From assembly GCA_902563095.1 (NCBI GenBank), contig CACEWA010000004.1:114-64113 (forward strand): DNA of 64,000 bases, in the 5' to 3' direction. Shown one piece after another: positions 1,529-36,877 of this stretch. The notes beneath the pieces were generated by a model, which searched no databases, was not told the DNA's origin, and was given only the letters and a program-made list of their open reading frames with translations. Positions within the stretch are counted from its first letter, which is position 1. The number at the start of each line of letters is the position of its first letter. The position numbers and the translations under genes were made by a program. The stretch is from an uncultured Candidatus Poseidoniales archaeon. Lineage in GTDB: Archaea > Thermoplasmatota > Poseidoniia > Poseidoniales > Poseidoniaceae.

Positions 1529-4500
1529 ATGAAGGGCCGAGCTTTTCTGTTAGTTTTCCTTATGGCAATGGCACCTTATCTGTCAACAATTGATGTGGTT
1601 GAAGCGACTTCCGGCAGAGCAATGGCATGTGCAGGGAATGTTTGCTTGAATGAAGCTCTACCTAATCCCAATGGCTATGACGACGCTGCATGGCCAGGTG
1701 GAGAATGGATGGAAATATACAATTCAGGAACCACTGCAGTTGATGTATTGAACTGGGAATTAGTCAACAAGGCAAACAAAGTACTGACATTTGATTCCTC
1801 CTCTATTGTTGGTTTTGAGGCTGGAAACTCCAGCACTTGGACAATACAGCCGGGTGATTACATGGTTATTGCAAGAAATGCAAACCAAAATTTCTACCTC
1901 ACAAATACCGCTGATTGGATCACTATGAATGATGCTTCAGGAAATACTGTTGACCAAGCATCTTGGAACTCTACAGCATCTGGAGTCAGCCTAGAGGAAG
2001 ACCCAACCAATGCAATGAATGATTGGATTTCGACTAACAGTCCAACACCCGGCTCAGTGAACAGTGCATCTACAGGACCTGTTCCTTCAGACTTGAGAAT
2101 AAGCGAAGTCATGGCTAACCCTTGGCCATCTGCCGACAATGCTTCTTGGCCAGGTGGAGAATGGCTTGAGATTTGGAACTCAGGTCAAAGTGACATCGAC
2201 CTAACTGGTTGGACAGTGGTTGATAATGCTGGAAACATCATTCCTTTCAATGAAAGTCACCTAATCGGTTCGTCCTCAATCATAGGGCCCGATGAATATC
2301 GTGTAGTTGCAGTAAACTCCTCTACTTCTTGGGGAGTATTCAACAACGGAGGAGAAACACTACGTCTGCAATGGCCGAATGGAACAATGGCAGAATCAAT
2401 ATCTTGGAGTGACACTGTGTCTGGCTTCTCTTTAGTCGAACAGGTCGACTTATCTTGGTCGCATTCAGCATATCCTACTCCCGGTTCTGCTAACCCTGCA
2501 TACTGGGAAGTAATCGTTAATGGAACTTCGATGATCAAGATAACCGAGGTCTTGGTCAATTCAACAACAGACGGAGCGCCATTACCTGATGGGGAATGGC
2601 TAGAATTGCACAATACTGCCAATAGCGATTACGACCTAAACGGTTGGAAATTAATGGATGGGATGGGCAATGTCACACACATTGATGCTCTAACCCTAGA
2701 GAACAACATGACTCAACCAGGCACAATGATTGCTGCAGATGGAAGAAGATTGGTTCAATTTTTCATGGGAACTGAACTTTGGGACAACTACAACCATGTC
2801 ATGCTGATTGACCAAGCAGGTGCAATCGTTCACAAATCGTGGTGGAATAGTGACCCTGGACTAAACGTTTCACTGATTGAATCACCAGATCCAATGGGGG
2901 CATGGGTTCCAGCAAGTTGGCCTACACCTGGCCAACCTGAGCCAAGTACTGTCTCAATGGTCGGTGAAATCGCATTCAACGAAATCCTGCCAGATGCTGT
3001 AGGAAATGATACCTCTTCTTGGCCCAACGGGGAATGGATTGAACTGATCAACATCGGAAACCAGACTATTGACATTGCAAACTGGCACTTCAAATCCGGT
3101 TCTAGAAACTTCAACATCAATCCTCACCAAATGCCACTCAAGAGTGACACAATGGTTAATCCTGGTGAGATTGTCTTAGTAGCTATCAATGGAAGTCAAG
3201 GATTCTATCTAAGGAATACAAACCCTGACACCATCGAATTGAGAGACTCTACAAACCAAATCATCTCTACAATCACCTACAACTCCAGCACCGAAGGCGA
3301 ATCAAACTGGTTCTGGAACGGTGATTGGTCACAATCTCCATGGCCTACACCAGGTACTGCAAACCCACAAACTTCACCTTACACTGGTGATGATTCCATT
3401 GAAATCACCGAGATACTTGCACACTGTTCAGATGGAAGCATCACCCCAGCTGATGATTGGATAGAAGTAATGAACAATGGCACACAGATGATTGATTTGT
3501 CTGCTTGGAGAATGATATCTAGCGATGGTGATTTGATGCATCTGCGCTCAGATAGGGTGTGGAATTCTACCAGCATGATTATCGCTCCTGGAGAAAGATT
3601 TGTTTTCACAACTCCGAACTGGTTTATCAGCGGCTTGGGAGATTCCATCTCCCTCCAAGACCCTGATGGTTTGGAAGTTGATTTCGTTGGCTGGAGCATT
3701 ACTACTGACTGTAAAACCATGAATGGTGATGGAGAAGTTCTACCGTGGCCAACACCGGGAGAAGAAGAGCCTGATACTTCGGATTTTGCTGGACCTGAAG
3801 ACTTGATTTTCAGCCGTTTCATGTTTGAAGAAAAGAGCCAAGACACTAATGATGAATTCTTTGAAATTAGCAACACTGGAGACCTAATGGCTGTCCTAAA
3901 TGGTTGGTCTATTAGGAAGATAACCACTGGTGGAACCACCTTCAATGGGACATTTACTGCAGGTGAAATTAATGCGGGTTCATCGGTAATTATCAGCCCA
4001 GATGCGAATTCCGTAAAGGCGATGGGCGCCACAATGATACTGGATGCAGATGAAGTGATGAATTTCCCTGTATGGATGCCTAACAGTGGAGCAACAATCC
4101 AATTGGTTGCACCTAATGGAGTCATTGCTGATACATTCGTTTATGGAAATGGACCTACTTCTGAAGAAGGTTGGTCCGGCCCTTCGATTGGCGAACCAGT
4201 AACGACTGTCGACCGTATTCTGTACCTGAGAGGTGACGGATGCGGAAGCATGCCGGATACCGATTCATCTAGCGATTGGGAGATGCGTTGGTCGGTTGCA
4301 GGTGCAAGTCATTTCTGTGGCATCAATACATTCACAGATGACACTAGCGTAACCCCACTCATTGGTCCTTCAGCAGGTCTTGATGATGTAGTTACAATGA
4401 TGAATAACGCAAACGATTCTATTCATTTGCACGTATACCAATTACACGACACTTACCTTGCAATGTCACTCATTGAAGCAGCAGCAAGAGGTGTAGACAT

Positions 4501-9282: not shown

Positions 9283-9355
9283 GCCGTTTTAGCTTAGCTG
9301 GTGGAGCGTGGGACTGTTAATCCCAAGGTCATGGGTTCGAACCCCATAAACGGCG
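9283..9355 (+). tRNA. tRNA-Asn (anticodon GUU)
   Basis: Hand-folded cloverleaf of 73 nt. Acceptor GCCGTTT (9283-9289) pairs with AAACGGC (9348-9354). D-stem is GCTT/GAGC. Anticodon stem TGGGA/TCCCA carries loop CTGTTAA, with anticodon GTT at 9316-9318. There is a 5-nt variable loop and a T-arm ATGGG-TTCGAAC-CCCAT. The discriminator is G, CCA is not fully encoded, and TTTT follows. Confidence 0.9.
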
Positions 9356-32307: not shown

Positions 32308-32712
32308 GGTTATCTCCTTTAGGCCCACTAGAAGGCGGGTTTAGAACCCTGCGCTATAAAGTTCAGAGTAAATGAGTAAATGCAATAGATTTTCTACCAA
32401 AATTACTACTTAGTGCCATTTTCTTACAATGTGCATAATATGATATGCGGATTGAATAACATTGCATCAAAATAACAAAAATAAGGAAAATGAAGACGGA
32501 AAAATCAGTTTAATCTAAATTGCTAATGCGAACTAAACTGGGGAAAATGAGCTAATGGAGATCGCTCTCTTTTATGATTCAATGCAGTGCTTTGTTTAGA
32601 CAAAATATCGATATTTGTCCGCATGCTGACTCAAATTAAATGATGGCAAAACGATATGCACTATGCATTTTTACCTAGTAACATTGAATAGCAAGAGGTT
32701 AGACGAGGATGT

Positions 32713-33558
32713 ATGTTAGGCAATGATGGCTCTGCATGGCTCGAAAGGATGCATATGCAAATTGCTAGAAATTTGAAAGCATCCGATTGGTCTCAGGCTG
32801 AAATCGCAGAAATTTTGGGCTCAACACAGTCAACGATATCTCGTATGGCACACCGCGATTTACCACAAATGGCTGGGACATCTGATGAATCTACAATTGA
32901 TGACTGGGCTCATGAAATTTCTCTAGCACTCAGGCAGTTGGGCCCAGGTGCAAGGCCTAGTAGAACACGTTTTGTAATGGAAATCGCTTTTGCCCCAGGC
33001 CAAGTCCTGAGATTTGACAAATCGCTAACAGGTACAGATTTAGATTCAGATCAAGAGCAAACGGCGCTGCTAAAGAGGCTTGAGTGGGCTGTGTCTAGAA
33101 TAGATGTAAATCGTCTGAAGCCGTTTATGCCTACTGTGGGAATGAACATCGCTTGTTGCCTAGATAATTCACGTTCAATTGCAGAAGTTGCCGCATTTCC
33201 AGGTAAACTATCAATCGTGGGAAATAAATTACGCCACCACGAAACTCCTGCTTTCGGTGCATCTAATTATCTTGCAAACATGTTGATAGATGCAAGGGTG
33301 CATGATAGTTCTAAAACCGCAATTCTAAATATCCACCCTGGAGATAAATTAGAAAATATTGAAATTATTTGTGAAGAGTTAGACTTGAACTTAACTTTTG
33401 CAACAAAGGGTGAATTGACTCCCCACCAAGGCATAGATATTATTCTGGATGAAGGAGCATTTGGATGGGTTCCTTCACTATACATACTCGCTCACAACCC
33501 ACTCGAATTAGTTGATAGAATGCACCAAATCGTTTCACTTATTCATTCTAGAGCATGA
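32713..33558 (+). CDS. HTH domain fused to a ThiN-type (thiamine-phosphate synthase-like) domain; ThiR-like regulator candidate
   Basis: N-terminal HTH WSQAEIAEILGSTQSTISRMA. The C-terminal region has blocks I recognise from the ThiN family: FMPTVGMNIA, IAEVAAFPGKL, FGASNYLANMLI, AILNIHP, DEGAFGWVPSLYILAHNP. Confidence 0.6.
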   Translation: MLGNDGSAWLERMHMQIARNLKASDWSQAEIAEILGSTQSTISRMAHRDLPQMAGTSDESTIDDWAHEISLALRQLGPGARPSRTRFVMEIAFAPGQVLRFDKSLTGTDLDSDQEQTALLKRLEWAVSRIDVNRLKPFMPTVGMNIACCLDNSRSIAEVAAFPGKLSIVGNKLRHHETPAFGASNYLANMLIDARVHDSSKTAILNIHPGDKLENIEIICEELDLNLTFATKGELTPHQGIDIILDEGAFGWVPSLYILAHNPLELVDRMHQIVSLIHSRA

Positions 33559-33585
33559 TATATTCAATAACTAGGTACTCGACGA

Positions 33586-33670
33586 CGATTTGGGGAGCTT
33601 ATTGCTGAGAGGTCGTCTTCGGACGACGACCCACTGACCTGATTCGGGTAATGCCGGCGGAGGGAGAAAT
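33586..33670 (+). promoter_or_regulatory. TPP (THI-box) riboswitch
   Basis: All conserved aptamer blocks appear in the right order: GGGGAGC (33592-33598), uuauu, GCUGAGA, the P3 hairpin GGUCGUC-uucg-GACGAC, ACCC, ACCUGAU, GGGUAAUGCCGGCG and GAGGGA (to 33666). P1 is AUUU (33588-33591) pairing with AAAU (33667-33670), directly abutting the AUG at 33671. A TATA-like ATATATT lies at 33557-33563. Confidence 0.9.
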
Positions 33671-35170
33671 ATGGACACAAATATTGCATATGGATTGATG
33701 CTTGTAACGCTTGGTTTCTTTGGCTACATTGGATACCAAGCAGCGACCGAAAGAAAACTGGAAGCCGATGAATATCTCTCGGCCAGAGGTTCACAAGATT
33801 GGTTGAGAATTGGACTTAGCCTATTTGCTTCAGGTATGGGTATTTGGATTCTCTTTGGCCCCAGTGAAGTTGGATATTATGGTGGATTTTGGGATGTTGT
33901 CGGATACGCCGTATCAGCAGCAACCCCCTTCCTGTTACTCGCTTACGTGGGCCCTATGGTTCGTGATAAATTACCCGATGGTGTGACATTGGCAGACTAT
34001 GTTAGGATGAGAATCGGCAGACCTATGCAAATCTATGTCGGTGTGATTTCTGTAATCTACATGTTTACTTTCTTGTTTGCCGAATTTACTGCAATTGGAA
34101 AGGCTATGAGTGTGCTATCGGACATGGACCCATTGATTCCGATGATTGCAGTTGGTGCAGTCACCGTGGGTTATACTGCATATGGAGGGTTGCCTGCTTC
34201 ATTGCGAACCGATAGAATCCAGGCATGGGTTGTACTGTGGCTTGTCATTGCGCTATTGCTTTTCGTGTTCGCTGGAGACCTCAGCAATTTGATTTCAGAT
34301 GCAAAGGCATACAACCCAGAAGACGATTGGAGTATTGGGAGTATGTCTTATATGGATTCATTCAAATCTGGATTGGCCCTTGTAATTGCGATTACTGCAG
34401 CAGAAATGTTTTCTCAAGGTAATTGGCAGAGAGCTTGGGCATCTGAGAATAATGAAGCGCTCAAGAAAGGAGCTCTTCTTGCAGCCGGCCTTGTCCTACC
34501 TCTAGTCTTCATCATGGGTGTATTGGGAACTGTTGCCGCTGGTCAAGGCGCAGTCGATGACCCTTCAGCAGCATTCTTTACTCTACTGGAAGATGCACAC
34601 ATTTTGATTATCGCTGGATTTGTAGTCCTAGGAATAGCCTTAGTTTGTTCAAGTGTTGATACACTGCAAAACGCTGTTTCTGCTTCTATTACAAGAGACC
34701 TTTCAGACAATAAAATGAATCTGGATCAGGCAAGAATTGCAACCGTGGCGATGATTCCATTGGCCATTTACTTGGCGACAGGGCCTACAATTGGAAACTT
34801 TACTTTCGATGCTGCGAGCGTATTTGGCATATTCCTATTCGCTGATTTATTGGCTGCGGCCACGGTACTACCTGTTCTGCTCACACTCTCTGATCGAATC
34901 AAATCTAGGGCGGCTCTAGCGGGTGCAGTTTGTGGATTGCTTTCTGTTGTAATTTATGGAATGTATACTGCAGATTTGAGTACAGGTATTGGATACCTAA
35001 CCTCTCCAACCAATGAATTTGGCATGGCTAATCTAGAGGTTTTCGTATCTGCACTGTGCGGTTCAGGTTTAGTCACAATCATTGGTTCTGAATTAATTGG
35101 AATGCAAGAATTACCAAATATTCCAAATGAAGAAGTGGCAAATCAAGAAGGCAGTTCTGAATCTGAATAG
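33671..35170 (+). CDS. sodium:solute symporter (SSS)-like transporter, TPP-riboswitch controlled (candidate thiamine/thiazole-precursor importer)
   Basis: 499 aa and about 13 TM helices. The N-terminus YLSARGSQDWLRIGLSLFASGMGIWILFG resembles the SSS family start. It sits immediately downstream of the riboswitch. Confidence 0.55.
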   Translation: MDTNIAYGLMLVTLGFFGYIGYQAATERKLEADEYLSARGSQDWLRIGLSLFASGMGIWILFGPSEVGYYGGFWDVVGYAVSAATPFLLLAYVGPMVRDKLPDGVTLADYVRMRIGRPMQIYVGVISVIYMFTFLFAEFTAIGKAMSVLSDMDPLIPMIAVGAVTVGYTAYGGLPASLRTDRIQAWVVLWLVIALLLFVFAGDLSNLISDAKAYNPEDDWSIGSMSYMDSFKSGLALVIAITAAEMFSQGNWQRAWASENNEALKKGALLAAGLVLPLVFIMGVLGTVAAGQGAVDDPSAAFFTLLEDAHILIIAGFVVLGIALVCSSVDTLQNAVSASITRDLSDNKMNLDQARIATVAMIPLAIYLATGPTIGNFTFDAASVFGIFLFADLLAAATVLPVLLTLSDRIKSRAALAGAVCGLLSVVIYGMYTADLSTGIGYLTSPTNEFGMANLEVFVSALCGSGLVTIIGSELIGMQELPNIPNEEVANQEGSSESE

Positions 35171-35217: not shown

Positions 35218-35754
35218 ATGGTCGGAACTCCACTTGATGTTGTACCATACATTCGCGGGGTGCAATTAGTTCTCATAGGATACAATGGTTACACAAAGGG
35301 TTCTCGATTCGAAAACGACAAAATGGTGCGAGATGAAATTGTCCGTGCCGTTGGTAGAGTTCGAAGTCATATGCAGAATATTTTCGATAGTCAATTTAAG
35401 GATGAAAACCTGGAAATTGCACGTGCTGCGAAACAGTGTATGGAAGAATGCGATTACTTGATTGAAGATGTTCAAAAATCTGCATCAGGAATGGAACATG
35501 CATTCCTTTCAGGACAGAGGTCTCCTTCTAATCGTGATTTGAAAAAACTAATCAAACACGACCACGATGTCATTGACATGGTTACTAAAGCCGTCAATAT
35601 TGCAAACAGTGCAGAACTATCTACATCTACATCAGATGGCAATGCCAAGCAACTTACTATGCAAACAACACAGGTTCTTACCAGTTGCAAAGGATTTTTT
35701 GGTGCGAGAAAAAATATTCTCGCAGGATTGAAACAAAAGAAAGTGAAGAAGTGA
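35218..35754 (+). CDS. hypothetical helical protein
   Basis: 178-aa ORF, with an alternative start MVRDEIV at 35323. It looks predominantly helical and charged, and I recognised no motif. Its stop lies 4 nt before the next gene. Confidence 0.45.
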   Translation: MVGTPLDVVPYIRGVQLVLIGYNGYTKGSRFENDKMVRDEIVRAVGRVRSHMQNIFDSQFKDENLEIARAAKQCMEECDYLIEDVQKSASGMEHAFLSGQRSPSNRDLKKLIKHDHDVIDMVTKAVNIANSAELSTSTSDGNAKQLTMQTTQVLTSCKGFFGARKNILAGLKQKKVKK

Positions 35755-35758
35755 TTAA

Positions 35759-36877
35759 ATGACGAACTACAAATGGAGAGATAGCCCCGATATTGTCGCT
35801 AGATTGGTTAATGCAGACAAGATACAAAGCTTTGCCACTCAGCAAGTTTTGCTCAAGCCAAACGAAGCCTGCGCCCTTATTGTCGACGGTAGAATTGGAG
35901 ATGTAATTACTGAAACTCTGCTGAAAAGCATGGCAGGCGGATTTACAAGATGGATAGGAGACAAACTTGGAGTCACCGCTAATGATAGACGTTTACTCTT
36001 TGCAATGACTGGACCGATGGATTATTGGATCCCATTCGAAGGTCAAATCGCAGATGGGGAAAAGGTCACTGGGTTTGCTAACTTAAGGATGCGTTTGGAT
36101 TTGGAAGATGTACCAAAACTTCTGAACTATTTTGCAAATAATGACCCGGTTTTAACCAGAGATGGTGTAATCAAAATCATTGCTGATGAAGTAAAAGCGA
36201 GAGTAGTCACTCCAGCACTATCCTCGTGTGAAAGTGCCGCAGGGCTAAGAAGTGCCTCATTCCTTGAGATGTTCGATATGTCTGCTGAAAGTGGAATGAG
36301 AAATCTATTGTCTAATCTTGGCTTCACCCTATTGAAGGCATTCCCGATTACCAACCCTACGGATATGGAGTTGGTTCAAAGACATCGAGCCGCTGTTCAG
36401 GCAAAAATGTCTGGTGATGAAGCAGATGTTGAAGCACAACTTGCACAATATGCTCAAACTGAAGCATTGACATTGGCAAGAATCGAACTCGAGAATAAAG
36501 TTGCAAGAGCAAATGCTCGAGGTAAAGTAACTGTAGAACTAGAAAGTGAATTGAAAGAACTACGTGCTCAAGAGGCAAAATGGTCTGCAGAACTAGATTT
36601 TGAACGCGGGAAAATGCAAATTAGAATTGATGAATCCGATGCCAAAAACAAGCGAGCAATGGATATGTTTGCCGAGGTTCAGGCAAGAAAGGCGGAAAGG
36701 ATTGCAAACCAGCAAGAATTCCAAAAACAGAGAATGGATTCGCAAAACCAATTGCAAAAAGAGATCATGGAATTGGCAGCAGAACACGGAGCGCTAACAC
36801 CTGAAGTCATTCAAGAAATGCTTCGCCAGCAAACTGCACAGAAAGCAATCGACGGAAACGACGAAGATTCTGCATAA
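35759..36877 (+). CDS. SPFH/Band-7-like domain protein with long C-terminal coiled coil, no TM segment
   Basis: The N-terminal pattern QQVLLKPNEACALIVDGRIGDVITE resembles YdjI-type SPFH proteins. The C-terminal ~150 aa is E/A/Q/K-rich heptad-like sequence (ELESELKELRAQEAKWSAELDFERGKMQIRIDES...). Confidence 0.45.
   Translation: MTNYKWRDSPDIVARLVNADKIQSFATQQVLLKPNEACALIVDGRIGDVITETLLKSMAGGFTRWIGDKLGVTANDRRLLFAMTGPMDYWIPFEGQIADGEKVTGFANLRMRLDLEDVPKLLNYFANNDPVLTRDGVIKIIADEVKARVVTPALSSCESAAGLRSASFLEMFDMSAESGMRNLLSNLGFTLLKAFPITNPTDMELVQRHRAAVQAKMSGDEADVEAQLAQYAQTEALTLARIELENKVARANARGKVTVELESELKELRAQEAKWSAELDFERGKMQIRIDESDAKNKRAMDMFAEVQARKAERIANQQEFQKQRMDSQNQLQKEIMELAAEHGALTPEVIQEMLRQQTAQKAIDGNDEDSA

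Follow-up and report, generated by a model that had tools for sequence, protein, structure and literature searches.

In TPP aptamers, CUGAGA forms the pyrimidine pocket and ACCUGAU together with GCG-AGGGA the pyrophosphate pocket, and the L5 loop is UAAUG. The P3 hairpin has about 5 bp in the Rfam consensus, and L5 docks on P3 in the solved structures. To our knowledge, all TPP aptamers studied so far possess P1. Direct translation attenuation has been described before as a class of TPP riboswitches (Barrick & Breaker 2007, PMC2258182). The element described here shares with the direct-attenuation class of RF00059 (PMC2258182) the core of GGGG..GC, CUGAGA, ACCC, ACCUGAU, UAAUG, and GCGGAGGGA, the optional P3a, the purine-rich 3' region that is the ribosome-binding site (RBS), and the absence of a separate platform. 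It differs by having no conserved P1, a P3 of only 2-3 bp, and a predicted 5'-terminal start. Outside the TPP riboswitches, SAM-II, preQ1-II, and SAM-III (SMK box) also carry the Shine-Dalgarno (SD) sequence within the ligand-binding fold so that the ligand hides the RBS, but their folds and ligands are unrelated to the TPP riboswitch. In SAR11 (Pelagibacter), thiV encodes an SSS-family HMP symporter behind a TPP riboswitch, which has been proposed to act on transcription (PMC11452348). Both there and here a TPP riboswitch precedes an SSS transporter gene, and both hosts are abundant microbes of the marine plankton. However, the host is bacterial there and archaeal here, and the likeness to ThiV (SAR11_0811) refers to family and riboswitch. 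The TPP riboswitches of the Thermoplasmatales are reportedly the only archaeal ones, as Rodionov et al. are said to have found in 2002 and 2017. Like the element described here, they are archaeal, belong to the Thermoplasmatota, and are located upstream of transporter genes, but here the order is Poseidoniales and a ThiR-like regulator co-occurs, the two being compared by description. The uncultured Marine Group II (MGII) archaea rank with the most abundant archaea of the plankton. In the surface ocean, vitamin B1 and its precursors are resources that are in short supply and traded.

The window, by which we mean the whole stretch of 64,000 nt of Poseidoniales archaeon DNA that was analysed, comes from a Marine Group II / Poseidoniales host and contains the element upstream of the transporter AUG at 33671. 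It is probable that this element is a P1-less TPP riboswitch that fills the 5' UTR and directly attenuates the translation of a ThiV-like transporter, and that the sequence repeat found upstream of it is private to the strain. The features of the locus, in window coordinates, are:

32681..32692, + strand: motif ACATTGAATAGC, TATA-like and a possible ThiR operator, ending 21 nt before the ATG of the ThiR-like gene
32713..33558, + strand: ThiR-like gene of 281 aa with N-terminal HTH and C-terminal ThiN (Pfam domains, source annotation)
33560..33571, + strand: conserved promoter motif ATATTCAATAAC, kept in the riboswitch loci
33563-33570, + strand: TATA-like core TTCAATAA of the riboswitch promoter motif, which also has a palindromic core ATTSAAT
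33581..33588, + strand: upstream copy of GACGACGA, unconserved, downstream of the TATA-like motif and ahead of the predicted transcription start site (TSS)
33592..33666, + strand: TPP aptamer (cmscan alignment, MFE fold, pair counts on 51 sequences, RNAalifold consensus)
33592-94 with 33630-32, + strand: P2 of the aptamer
33596/7-98 with 33604-05/6, + strand: P3 of the aptamer, 2-3 bp
33606-10, + strand: J3-2 of the aptamer, UGAGA
33612-17 with 33622-27, + strand: P3a of the aptamer, with UUCG loop
33638-40 with 33661-63, + strand: P4 of the aptamer
33644-47 with 33654-57, + strand: P5 of the aptamer
33659..33663, + strand: GGAGG Shine-Dalgarno, of which 33661-63 is also the 3' strand of P4 (SD register, 51 loci)
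33664..33670, + strand: purine- and A-rich spacer from aptamer to start codon, taken earlier as the 3' strand of P1; no register pairs with the 5' flank in over 25% of the sequences
33671..35170, + strand: sodium:solute symporter (SSS) family transporter of 499 aa, ThiV-like (PF00474, 8e-19; TIGR00813)

The THI-box blocks can be read directly from the window: GGGGAGC at 33592-98, CUGAGA at 33605-10, ACCC at 33629-32, ACCUGAU at 33637-43, GGGUAAUGCCGGCG at 33646-59, and GAGGGA at 33660-65, after which the AUG follows at 33671. CUGAGA, ACCUGAU, GCG-AGGGA, and the L5 loop UAAUG are all present in the window copy, and the ligand-contacting core blocks are invariant or nearly so in the 51 sequences, which represent species-level lineages. 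RF00059 matches at 33581-33683 in cmscan with 53.9 bits (E = 5.7e-10 in the local scan and 9e-8 for the whole window). A cmsearch score above the curated gathering score of 54.3 bits had been part of the original prediction; the window copy formally falls short of it by 0.4 bits and is absent from the gathering-threshold scan, whereas 18 of the 20 orthologous elements tested exceed it (54.9-66.7 bits). Of the 81 orthologous Poseidoniales loci with the SSS-family (ThiV-like) transporter, 51 have the aptamer upstream of it and 30 lack it altogether. It is located directly 5' of the SSS transporter and beside the gene combining HTH and ThiN (ThiR-like), and this linkage is conserved: the TPP riboswitch accompanies the transporter in 51 loci, and the ThiR-like gene does so in 10. 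Neither a second TPP aptamer nor any other RNA family was found in the window at E values up to 0.05, where one tRNA was the only other hit. With the blocks, the Marine Group II host, and the orthologues above the threshold, the archaeal TPP riboswitch originally proposed is upheld: judged by its sequence, the element is a genuine RF00059-type TPP riboswitch in front of an archaeal transporter gene, and would be expected to bind TPP. Two features of the ThiV class, the SSS fold and an upstream TPP riboswitch, are found for the window transporter, which presumably imports thiamine or a precursor. The conserved riboswitch marks this ThiV-like importer as part of the B1 acquisition of MGII and provides a sequence marker for metagenomes.

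In the 51 sequences, P2 and P4 do not vary and their pairing is 100%. For P5 the pairing is 99.5%, with two compensatory pairs, and for P3a it is 95.4%, five of its six pairs showing compensatory changes. The permutation controls of the helices gave 0/2000. The RNAalifold consensus of the region from -30 to +60 comprises P2, P3, P3a, P4, and P5 and nothing else. The stem that was earlier named P3 is real in its pairing of 33612-17 with 33622-27, but it is actually the optional P3a. The true P3 is formed by 2-3 invariant base pairs with a loop of 4-6 nt, and six positions of the model are deleted here by cmscan. For RNAs starting at 33588 or 33592 the MFE structure is the aptamer fold. The P4/P5 hairpin alone has a folding energy of -8.6 kcal/mol and is able to form without ligand.

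The GGAGG of the aptamer occupies the normal SD register of this genome. Of 52 window genes, 13 have an SD-like 5-mer at -18 to -4, compared to 1 of 52 in the control interval, and in 50 of the 51 riboswitch loci the first base of GGAGG is at -12 or -13. The aptamer 3' end is always 7-9 nt before the start codon, and the 51 loci have 76-80 nt from GGGG to the start codon (the 83-84 nt obtained for L048, L053, and L060 are measured against a provisional start coordinate). Where orthologues lack the riboswitch, GAGGTGAT or GAGGGA takes the place of the aptamer SD. Sequence reading, the MFE fold, and RNAalifold revealed neither an oligo-T terminator tract nor an extra hairpin between aptamer and AUG, which rules out a transcription terminator as expression platform. 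Two earlier proposals, an SD-like element inside the aptamer and the lack of a separate expression platform, therefore hold, because GGAGG overlaps the 3' strand of P4, the AUG follows too closely to leave space for a platform, and this layout is kept in 51 loci. The locus has the layout of direct translation attenuation, with the RBS within the aptamer core, the start codon right after it, and no terminator or sequestor hairpin. Most likely, the riboswitch blocks its own ribosome-binding site directly, and this occlusion would depend on the ligand.

According to this mechanism, transcription would be driven by the TATA-like motif at 33560-71 and start at about 33592, and the aptamer would fill the whole 5' UTR of about 79 nt. 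The RNA would fold into P2, a minimal P3, P3a, P4, and P5 with no closing P1, and the SD GGAGG (33659-63) would provide the 3' strand of P4 with the AUG following 7 nt later. By bridging the two sensor arms TPP would lock P4/P5, so that the SD would be occluded and translation of the transporter would fall, and without TPP the 3-bp P4 could open for the 30S subunit. If true, about 79 nt would suffice for this natural riboswitch, a minimal design that does without an expression platform. We know of no riboswitch mechanism that has been demonstrated in this archaeal lineage, and of almost no experimental knowledge on the mechanisms of archaeal riboswitches in general. A literature search (searchable library) found no description of TPP riboswitches in MGII/Poseidoniales or of the mechanism in Thermoplasma. 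With archaeal mechanisms largely uncharacterised and the aptamer predicted to form the very 5' terminus of the mRNA, the riboswitch might instead act mainly on transcription or RNA stability and not on translation initiation, for example through a ligand-dependent access of 5'-to-3' exonucleases to the 5' end. However, this is unlikely, because there is no oligo-T terminator-like tract between aptamer and AUG, and because the strict GGAGG register and the strict distance from aptamer to AUG are what direct control of the RBS predicts. In addition, a ligand-stabilised 5' structure is expected to protect the mRNA, which would be the wrong sign for the feedback on an importer.

The direct attenuation model places the start of transcription at the aptamer, and this prediction comes from the promoter motif. 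In the riboswitch loci, the last base of the motif is located 21-25 nt before GGGG. The same motif is found at exactly -21 in all ten loci with a ThiR-like gene (50-99% identity), and ACATTGAATAGC, the copy in front of this gene in the window, is the second-best intergenic PWM match there. Because of the fixed spacing from motif to ATG and the lack of a conserved SD, the ThiR-like gene appears to be leaderless. The other leaderless genes of the window rely on ordinary TATA boxes, for example TTTAATAA and TTTTATAT, and in these generic cases the TATA-like 8-mer ends at -23 or -24. In the data examined, promoter-like occurrences of the motif are limited to the riboswitch and thiR promoters, and it is missing from the other roughly 63 gene starts of the window. 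The motif was also considered as a generic MGII promoter element, which was rejected because, of about 65 window gene starts, only those of thiR and of the riboswitch gene have it. Based on the spacing of the motif, the TSS of the riboswitch is most likely at about 33592 (predicted range 33589-33594), no more than about 3 nt away from the G that opens GGGG. The stop codon of thiR (33558) abuts the promoter motif and there is no obvious terminator. Thus, read-through may additionally yield transcripts that include the leader.

The original prediction included a 4-bp P1 (AUUU/AAAU) next to the start codon. This candidate helix of AUUU 33588-91 with AAAU 33667-70 can be drawn in this strain but is not conserved, being only 44% paired in the 51 sequences, and no other register does better: within 14 by 22 positions of 5' flank against 3' tail, no 3-bp P1 helix is present in more than 25% of the sequences in any register. 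The mean duplex energy of leader with tail is +0.15 kcal/mol, and 914 of 2000 cross-species permutations are equal or better. P1 is also absent from the RNAalifold consensus, and pairing with distal coding sequence is likewise unsupported. The helix closing the three-way junction is therefore not conserved in any register, and the Poseidoniales element appears to be a P1-less variant whose aptamer starts with the transcript itself, at its 5' end. It could be imagined that the element is nevertheless a canonical TPP riboswitch with the short P1 (AUUU 33588-91/AAAU 33667-70) and a TSS a few bases further upstream, in which case the ligand-stabilised P1 would occlude the start codon region. The predicted TSS is indeed uncertain by a few bases, and in addition to the 4-bp A-U helix of this strain a shifted UAUU/AAUA pairing is possible in conspecific strains; the Rfam model aligns P1 with three of five standard pairs. 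We consider this quite improbable, because it would rely on a helix that is unpaired in more than half of the cases and that RNAalifold does not predict, because mismatched partners do equally well at duplex energies of about 0, and because the promoter spacing sets the TSS at or after the AUUU bases. If true, a P1-less, 5'-terminal aptamer would challenge the ligand-stabilised P1 as the communication link in TPP riboswitches.

The operator of ThiR is palindromic, is located upstream of thiamine genes, and is bound in the presence of thiamine phosphates. ThiR itself is said to be an archaeal thiamine regulator composed of an HTH and a ThiN-like domain (reportedly described by Rodionov et al. 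in J Bacteriol in 2017), and their 2002/2017 work reportedly assigned ThiR regulators to lineages other than the Thermoplasmatales. The neighbour gene in the window has this HTH and ThiN architecture, with HTH_37/HTH_3 at residues 15-50 and ThiN (PF10120, 3.5e-23) at residues 123-270 according to Pfam. The PDB relatives of the ThiN domain are 2pb9 and 2php, and one source annotates homologues as 'XRE family transcriptional regulator, thiamine biosynthesis regulator'. We know of no ThiR that has been described in the Thermoplasmatota or Poseidoniales. Similar to ThiR, a partly palindromic motif is common to the gene's own promoter and to that of the riboswitch. However, the motif here also resembles a TATA box itself, and DNA binding is putative. 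The ATTSAAT motif and a TATA box are indistinguishable by sequence alone, which leaves the role as ThiR operator a putative one. The common motif at the riboswitch and at the leaderless thiR hints at a dual control by protein and riboswitch. In this case, an autoregulated ThiR-like protein sensing thiamine phosphates would act at the level of transcription and the TPP-sensing RNA at the level of translation. It is a tentative suggestion that the Poseidoniales have a variant combining all of this, which is P1-less and 5'-terminal with a vestigial P3, a P4 strand that is the SD, and a promoter motif shared with ThiR, and whose transporter is controlled twice, transcriptionally by the protein and translationally by the RNA. 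If true, the ThiR-like regulator at the same promoter would mean layered protein and RNA control in an archaeon.

Direct reading confirms that GACGACGA is duplicated, at 33581-33588 and 33622-33629, with GUCGUC at 33612-33617. It had been proposed that the upstream copy is transcribed, pairs with GUCGUC 33612-17 (the 5' arm of P3a), and competes with the folding of the aptamer as a 5' anti-aptamer. In this strain the pairing is strong, the duplex of leader and arm having -9.4 kcal/mol compared to a family mean of -3.4, and for an RNA starting at 33578 the alternative fold has the minimum free energy (-26.5 versus about -24.7 kcal/mol). Also, the GACGAC/GUCGUC complementarity is kept in three conspecific contigs, and read-through from thiR could bring the leader into the RNA. 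The comparative data speak against this. The upstream copy is missing in 49 of 51 lineages as judged by the longest common substring, including the nearest other lineages (83-89% protein identity), of which L005 and L006 have the same thiR-riboswitch arrangement as the window; a comparison of close relatives showed the exact 8-mer to be private to this strain. By column pair counts, the helix of leader and P3a 5' arm is 34.3% paired, which is below the shuffle mean of 36.4%, and the duplex energies compared to cross-species partners (659/2000 permutations) do not reveal any co-variation. Neither conservation nor co-variation of the repeat was thus found in the relatives. In addition, the copy is located between the TATA-like motif and the predicted TSS at about 33592, downstream of 33588, and is therefore most likely promoter DNA and not RNA as had been assumed. 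The alternative fold is not obviously coupled to an exposure of the SD. An anti-aptamer is thus very improbable. An 8-nt repeat of the P3a arm alone was obtained in 3 of 20000 shuffles, but a repeat of any aptamer part in either orientation has a p of about 0.02 per lineage and of about 0.7 for at least one among the 51. Having no conserved role, the upstream GACGACGA is a repeat that arose by chance and is private to this strain.

Finally, it is hardly credible that the element is a decayed, non-functional relic, as could be supposed from the score of the window copy below the threshold, the truncated P3, the missing P1, and the 30 orthologous loci without it, because the core blocks that contact the ligand do not vary among the 51 species-level lineages, most of the orthologues tested exceed the gathering score, and the compensatory substitutions in P3a and P5 indicate that purifying selection on the structure continues.

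Direct reading of positions 33300-33900 bore out all sequence statements of the original prediction: the THI-box blocks are complete, the transporter ATG lies at 33671, GACGACGA occurs twice (33581-88 and 33622-29), and GUCGUC is found at 33612-17. The intergenic space comprises only 112 nt, the same-strand upstream ORF ending at 33558. At Rfam gathering thresholds the whole window gave only a tRNA, and RF00059 (TPP) was not reported. A permissive Rfam scan matched RF00059 at 33581-33683 with E = 5.7e-10 locally and 9e-8 over the entire window. The window copy scores 53.9 bits, just under the gathering score of 54.3, because the first hairpin of the model has a deletion and P1 contains non-standard pairs, but 18 of the 20 orthologues tested exceed the threshold (54.9-66.7 bits). 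Together with the presence of the aptamer in 51 sequences, window included, these scores argue that the element is a real TPP riboswitch under selection, with the window copy as a marginal-scoring member. The identification as a riboswitch holds, and the literature searched contained no account of a TPP riboswitch from Marine Group II (MGII). The tRNA gene (9283-9355, 70.9 bits) is the sole other Rfam match in the 64-kb window.

The 499-aa ORF downstream belongs to the sodium:solute symporter (SSS) family (PF00474 and TIGR00813), and its homologues come from Marine Group II/Poseidoniales archaea, including Thalassarchaeaceae and Poseidoniaceae. In SAR11, SSS-family ThiV transporters are likewise controlled by a TPP riboswitch (PMC11452348; PMC2211319). 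The upstream 281-aa ORF (thiR, 32713-33558) joins an HTH to a ThiN domain, and its homologues are named 'XRE family transcriptional regulator, thiamine biosynthesis regulator' in one source. This architecture is reportedly that of the archaeal thiamine regulator ThiR. ThiR-like homologues are common across MGII, and the window copy lies directly 5' of the TPP riboswitch. ThiR is reported from Crenarchaeota, Halobacteria, and Thermococci, while archaeal TPP riboswitches are not known outside Thermoplasmatales; the two together at one locus would be new. The transporter is followed by two genes, 35218-35754 (178 aa, weak LIMLP_15305-family match) and 35759-36877 (372 aa, no Pfam match), whose order is kept in close relatives (loci L081-L086) and which could belong to the same operon.

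The comparative set consisted of 80 orthologous transporter loci (L numbers) from species-representative genomes with 66-88% protein identity, plus closer relatives. GGGG, the start of the aptamer, and the start codon are 76-80 nt apart, or 83-84 nt in L048, L053, and L060 when measured to a provisional start coordinate. In some orthologues a TTG or unclear non-ATG start is apparent right after the aptamer (L005 3001, L058 3001, L066 ~2994-3001). The riboswitch is absent from about 30 orthologous transporter genes, which form two groups by upstream neighbour. In five loci (L004, L008, L054, L055, L059) the ThiR-like gene abuts the transporter, which has a strong Shine-Dalgarno sequence (SD), GAGGTGAT or GAGGGA. 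In about 20 others (including L012, L014, L015, L018, L020, L022, L035, and L037) an aldehyde dehydrogenase gene abuts the transporter, and no thiamine-related signal was found at these loci. The two kinds of riboswitch-less loci indicate repeated gain or loss of the regulatory element in this order.

The original proposal, control of translation with no expression platform of its own, is well supported by these sequences because SD usage in the genome, the position of the aptamer's GGAGG, and its overlap with P4 agree. SD-like 5-mers related to GGAGGUGA are found at -18 to -4 of 13 of 52 confidently started genes, compared with one of 52 in a control interval. In 50 of the 51 loci the first G of GGAGG lies at -12 or -13, the AGG of the SD (33661-63) is the 3' strand of P4, and the riboswitch-less orthologues have their SD at the same place. 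The reading of the SD as part of the aptamer is correct, yet already known: direct translation attenuation is common for TPP riboswitches, the purine-rich 3' conserved region replacing the ribosome-binding site (PMC2258182). The window contains two kinds of genes, apparently leaderless ones, in which a TATA-like 8-mer ends 23-24 nt 5' of the ATG, and SD-led ones, in which GGAGGUGA-like words lie between -15 and -9 (13 of 52 genes); gene starts exemplifying this mix are 15444(+), 16745(+), 12920(+), 38434(-), 29934(-), 41463(-), and 62137(+).

Helices of the aptamer in the 51-sequence alignment A2
P2: 100% paired, invariant
P4: 100% paired, invariant
P5: 99.5% paired, 2 compensatory pairs
P3a (originally called P3): 95.4% paired, compensatory changes in 5 of 6 pairs

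Because it lies after UGAGA and before the 3' strand of P2, the stem originally called P3 is instead the optional P3a of TPP riboswitches described by Barrick & Breaker (PMC2258182). The canonical P3 has only 2-3 invariant base pairs. In all 51 sequences P3 (33596-33606) is reduced to these 2-3 bp with a loop of 4-6 nt, while L5 (GUAAUG) is still conserved. Solved structures of TPP riboswitches show L5 docked on P3. This combination suggests that the tertiary contact of L5 must either be different here or have been taken over by P3a. The proposed P1 is only 44% paired across the 51 sequences. The 8 nt that precede GGGG pair with the 3' tail at a mean duplex energy of +0.15 kcal/mol, partners from other species being as good (914 of 2000 permutations), and in all 14 by 22 registers no 3-bp P1-like helix was found in more than 25% of the sequences. 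RNAalifold over -30 to +60 gave P2, P3, P3a, P4, P5, and nothing more. This pairing, the energies, the register scan, and RNAalifold give no support for a P1 helix; its absence appears to be conserved and P3 seems vestigial, and both remain of interest.

The upstream copy of the 8-mer (33581-88) had been proposed to act as an anti-aptamer by pairing with GUCGUC. However, a string of at least 6 nt shared by leader and P3a 3' arm occurs only twice, with 8 nt in the window and 6 nt in L075, and 49 of 51 sequences are at chance level. The leader-to-arm duplex has -9.4 kcal/mol in the window and a family mean of -3.4, the same as mismatched partners (659 of 2000 permutations), and the proposed helix is 34.3% paired, under its shuffle mean. 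In conspecific contigs (99% protein identity) the upstream sequence is AGACGACGT and the arm has GGCGACGA, so that the exact 8-mer is confined to the window strain. Lineages at 83-89% identity, including L005 and L006 with the same thiR-riboswitch arrangement, have nothing comparable to the upstream copy. An 8-nt match to any aptamer part in either orientation arises in about 2% of shuffles, corresponding to a chance of about 0.7 of at least one among 51 lineages. Conservation, duplex energies, pairing, relatives, and the chance estimate all speak against the anti-aptamer, and like the P1 proposal it is not supported. In L075 (~2891-2920) the leader repeats 6 nt (GGGCGA) of the P3a 3' arm of that lineage (duplex -5.8 kcal/mol); this only other case among the 51 is consistent with chance. 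In the window strain the alternative fold is the MFE structure provided that the leader is transcribed, and the question therefore turns on the transcription start site.

In the riboswitch loci a conserved 12-nt motif, ATRTTSAATAAY (window 33560-71), ends 21-25 nt 5' of GGGG. All ten loci with a ThiR-like gene (50-99% identity) also have this motif upstream of it, with its end exactly 21 nt from the ATG, and no conserved SD lies between the two in these loci, which is, judged from sequence, the signature of a leaderless gene. In other SD-less genes of the window ordinary TATA-like 8-mers end at -23 or -24. Taking these spacings as calibration, we infer a start of the riboswitch transcript near 33592 (range 33589-33594), at P2. 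The predicted position of the aptamer at the very 5' terminus of its transcript remains of interest. The thiR stop codon lies immediately next to the motif, and transcripts may also read through from thiR.

Occurrences of the motif A[CT][AG]TT[GC]AATA[AG]N (palindromic core ATTSAAT) in the window
32681-32692, 5' of thiR (plus strand)
33560-33571, 5' of the riboswitch (plus strand)

Among the roughly 65 gene starts of the window only the thiR and riboswitch promoters have the motif. It also precedes the ThiR-like genes of L004, L005, L006, L008, L054, L055, L059, L084, and L086. Across 1.2 Mb of MGII sequence, a cut-off of 12 bits gave 31 riboswitch promoters (used for training), 10 thiR promoters (independent of the training), and no other promoter-like sites. 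As a hypothesis, the motif may be a ThiR operator overlapping the TATA box, in which case thiR would be autoregulated and the transporter doubly controlled; the promoter motif common to riboswitch and ThiR-like gene remains of interest.
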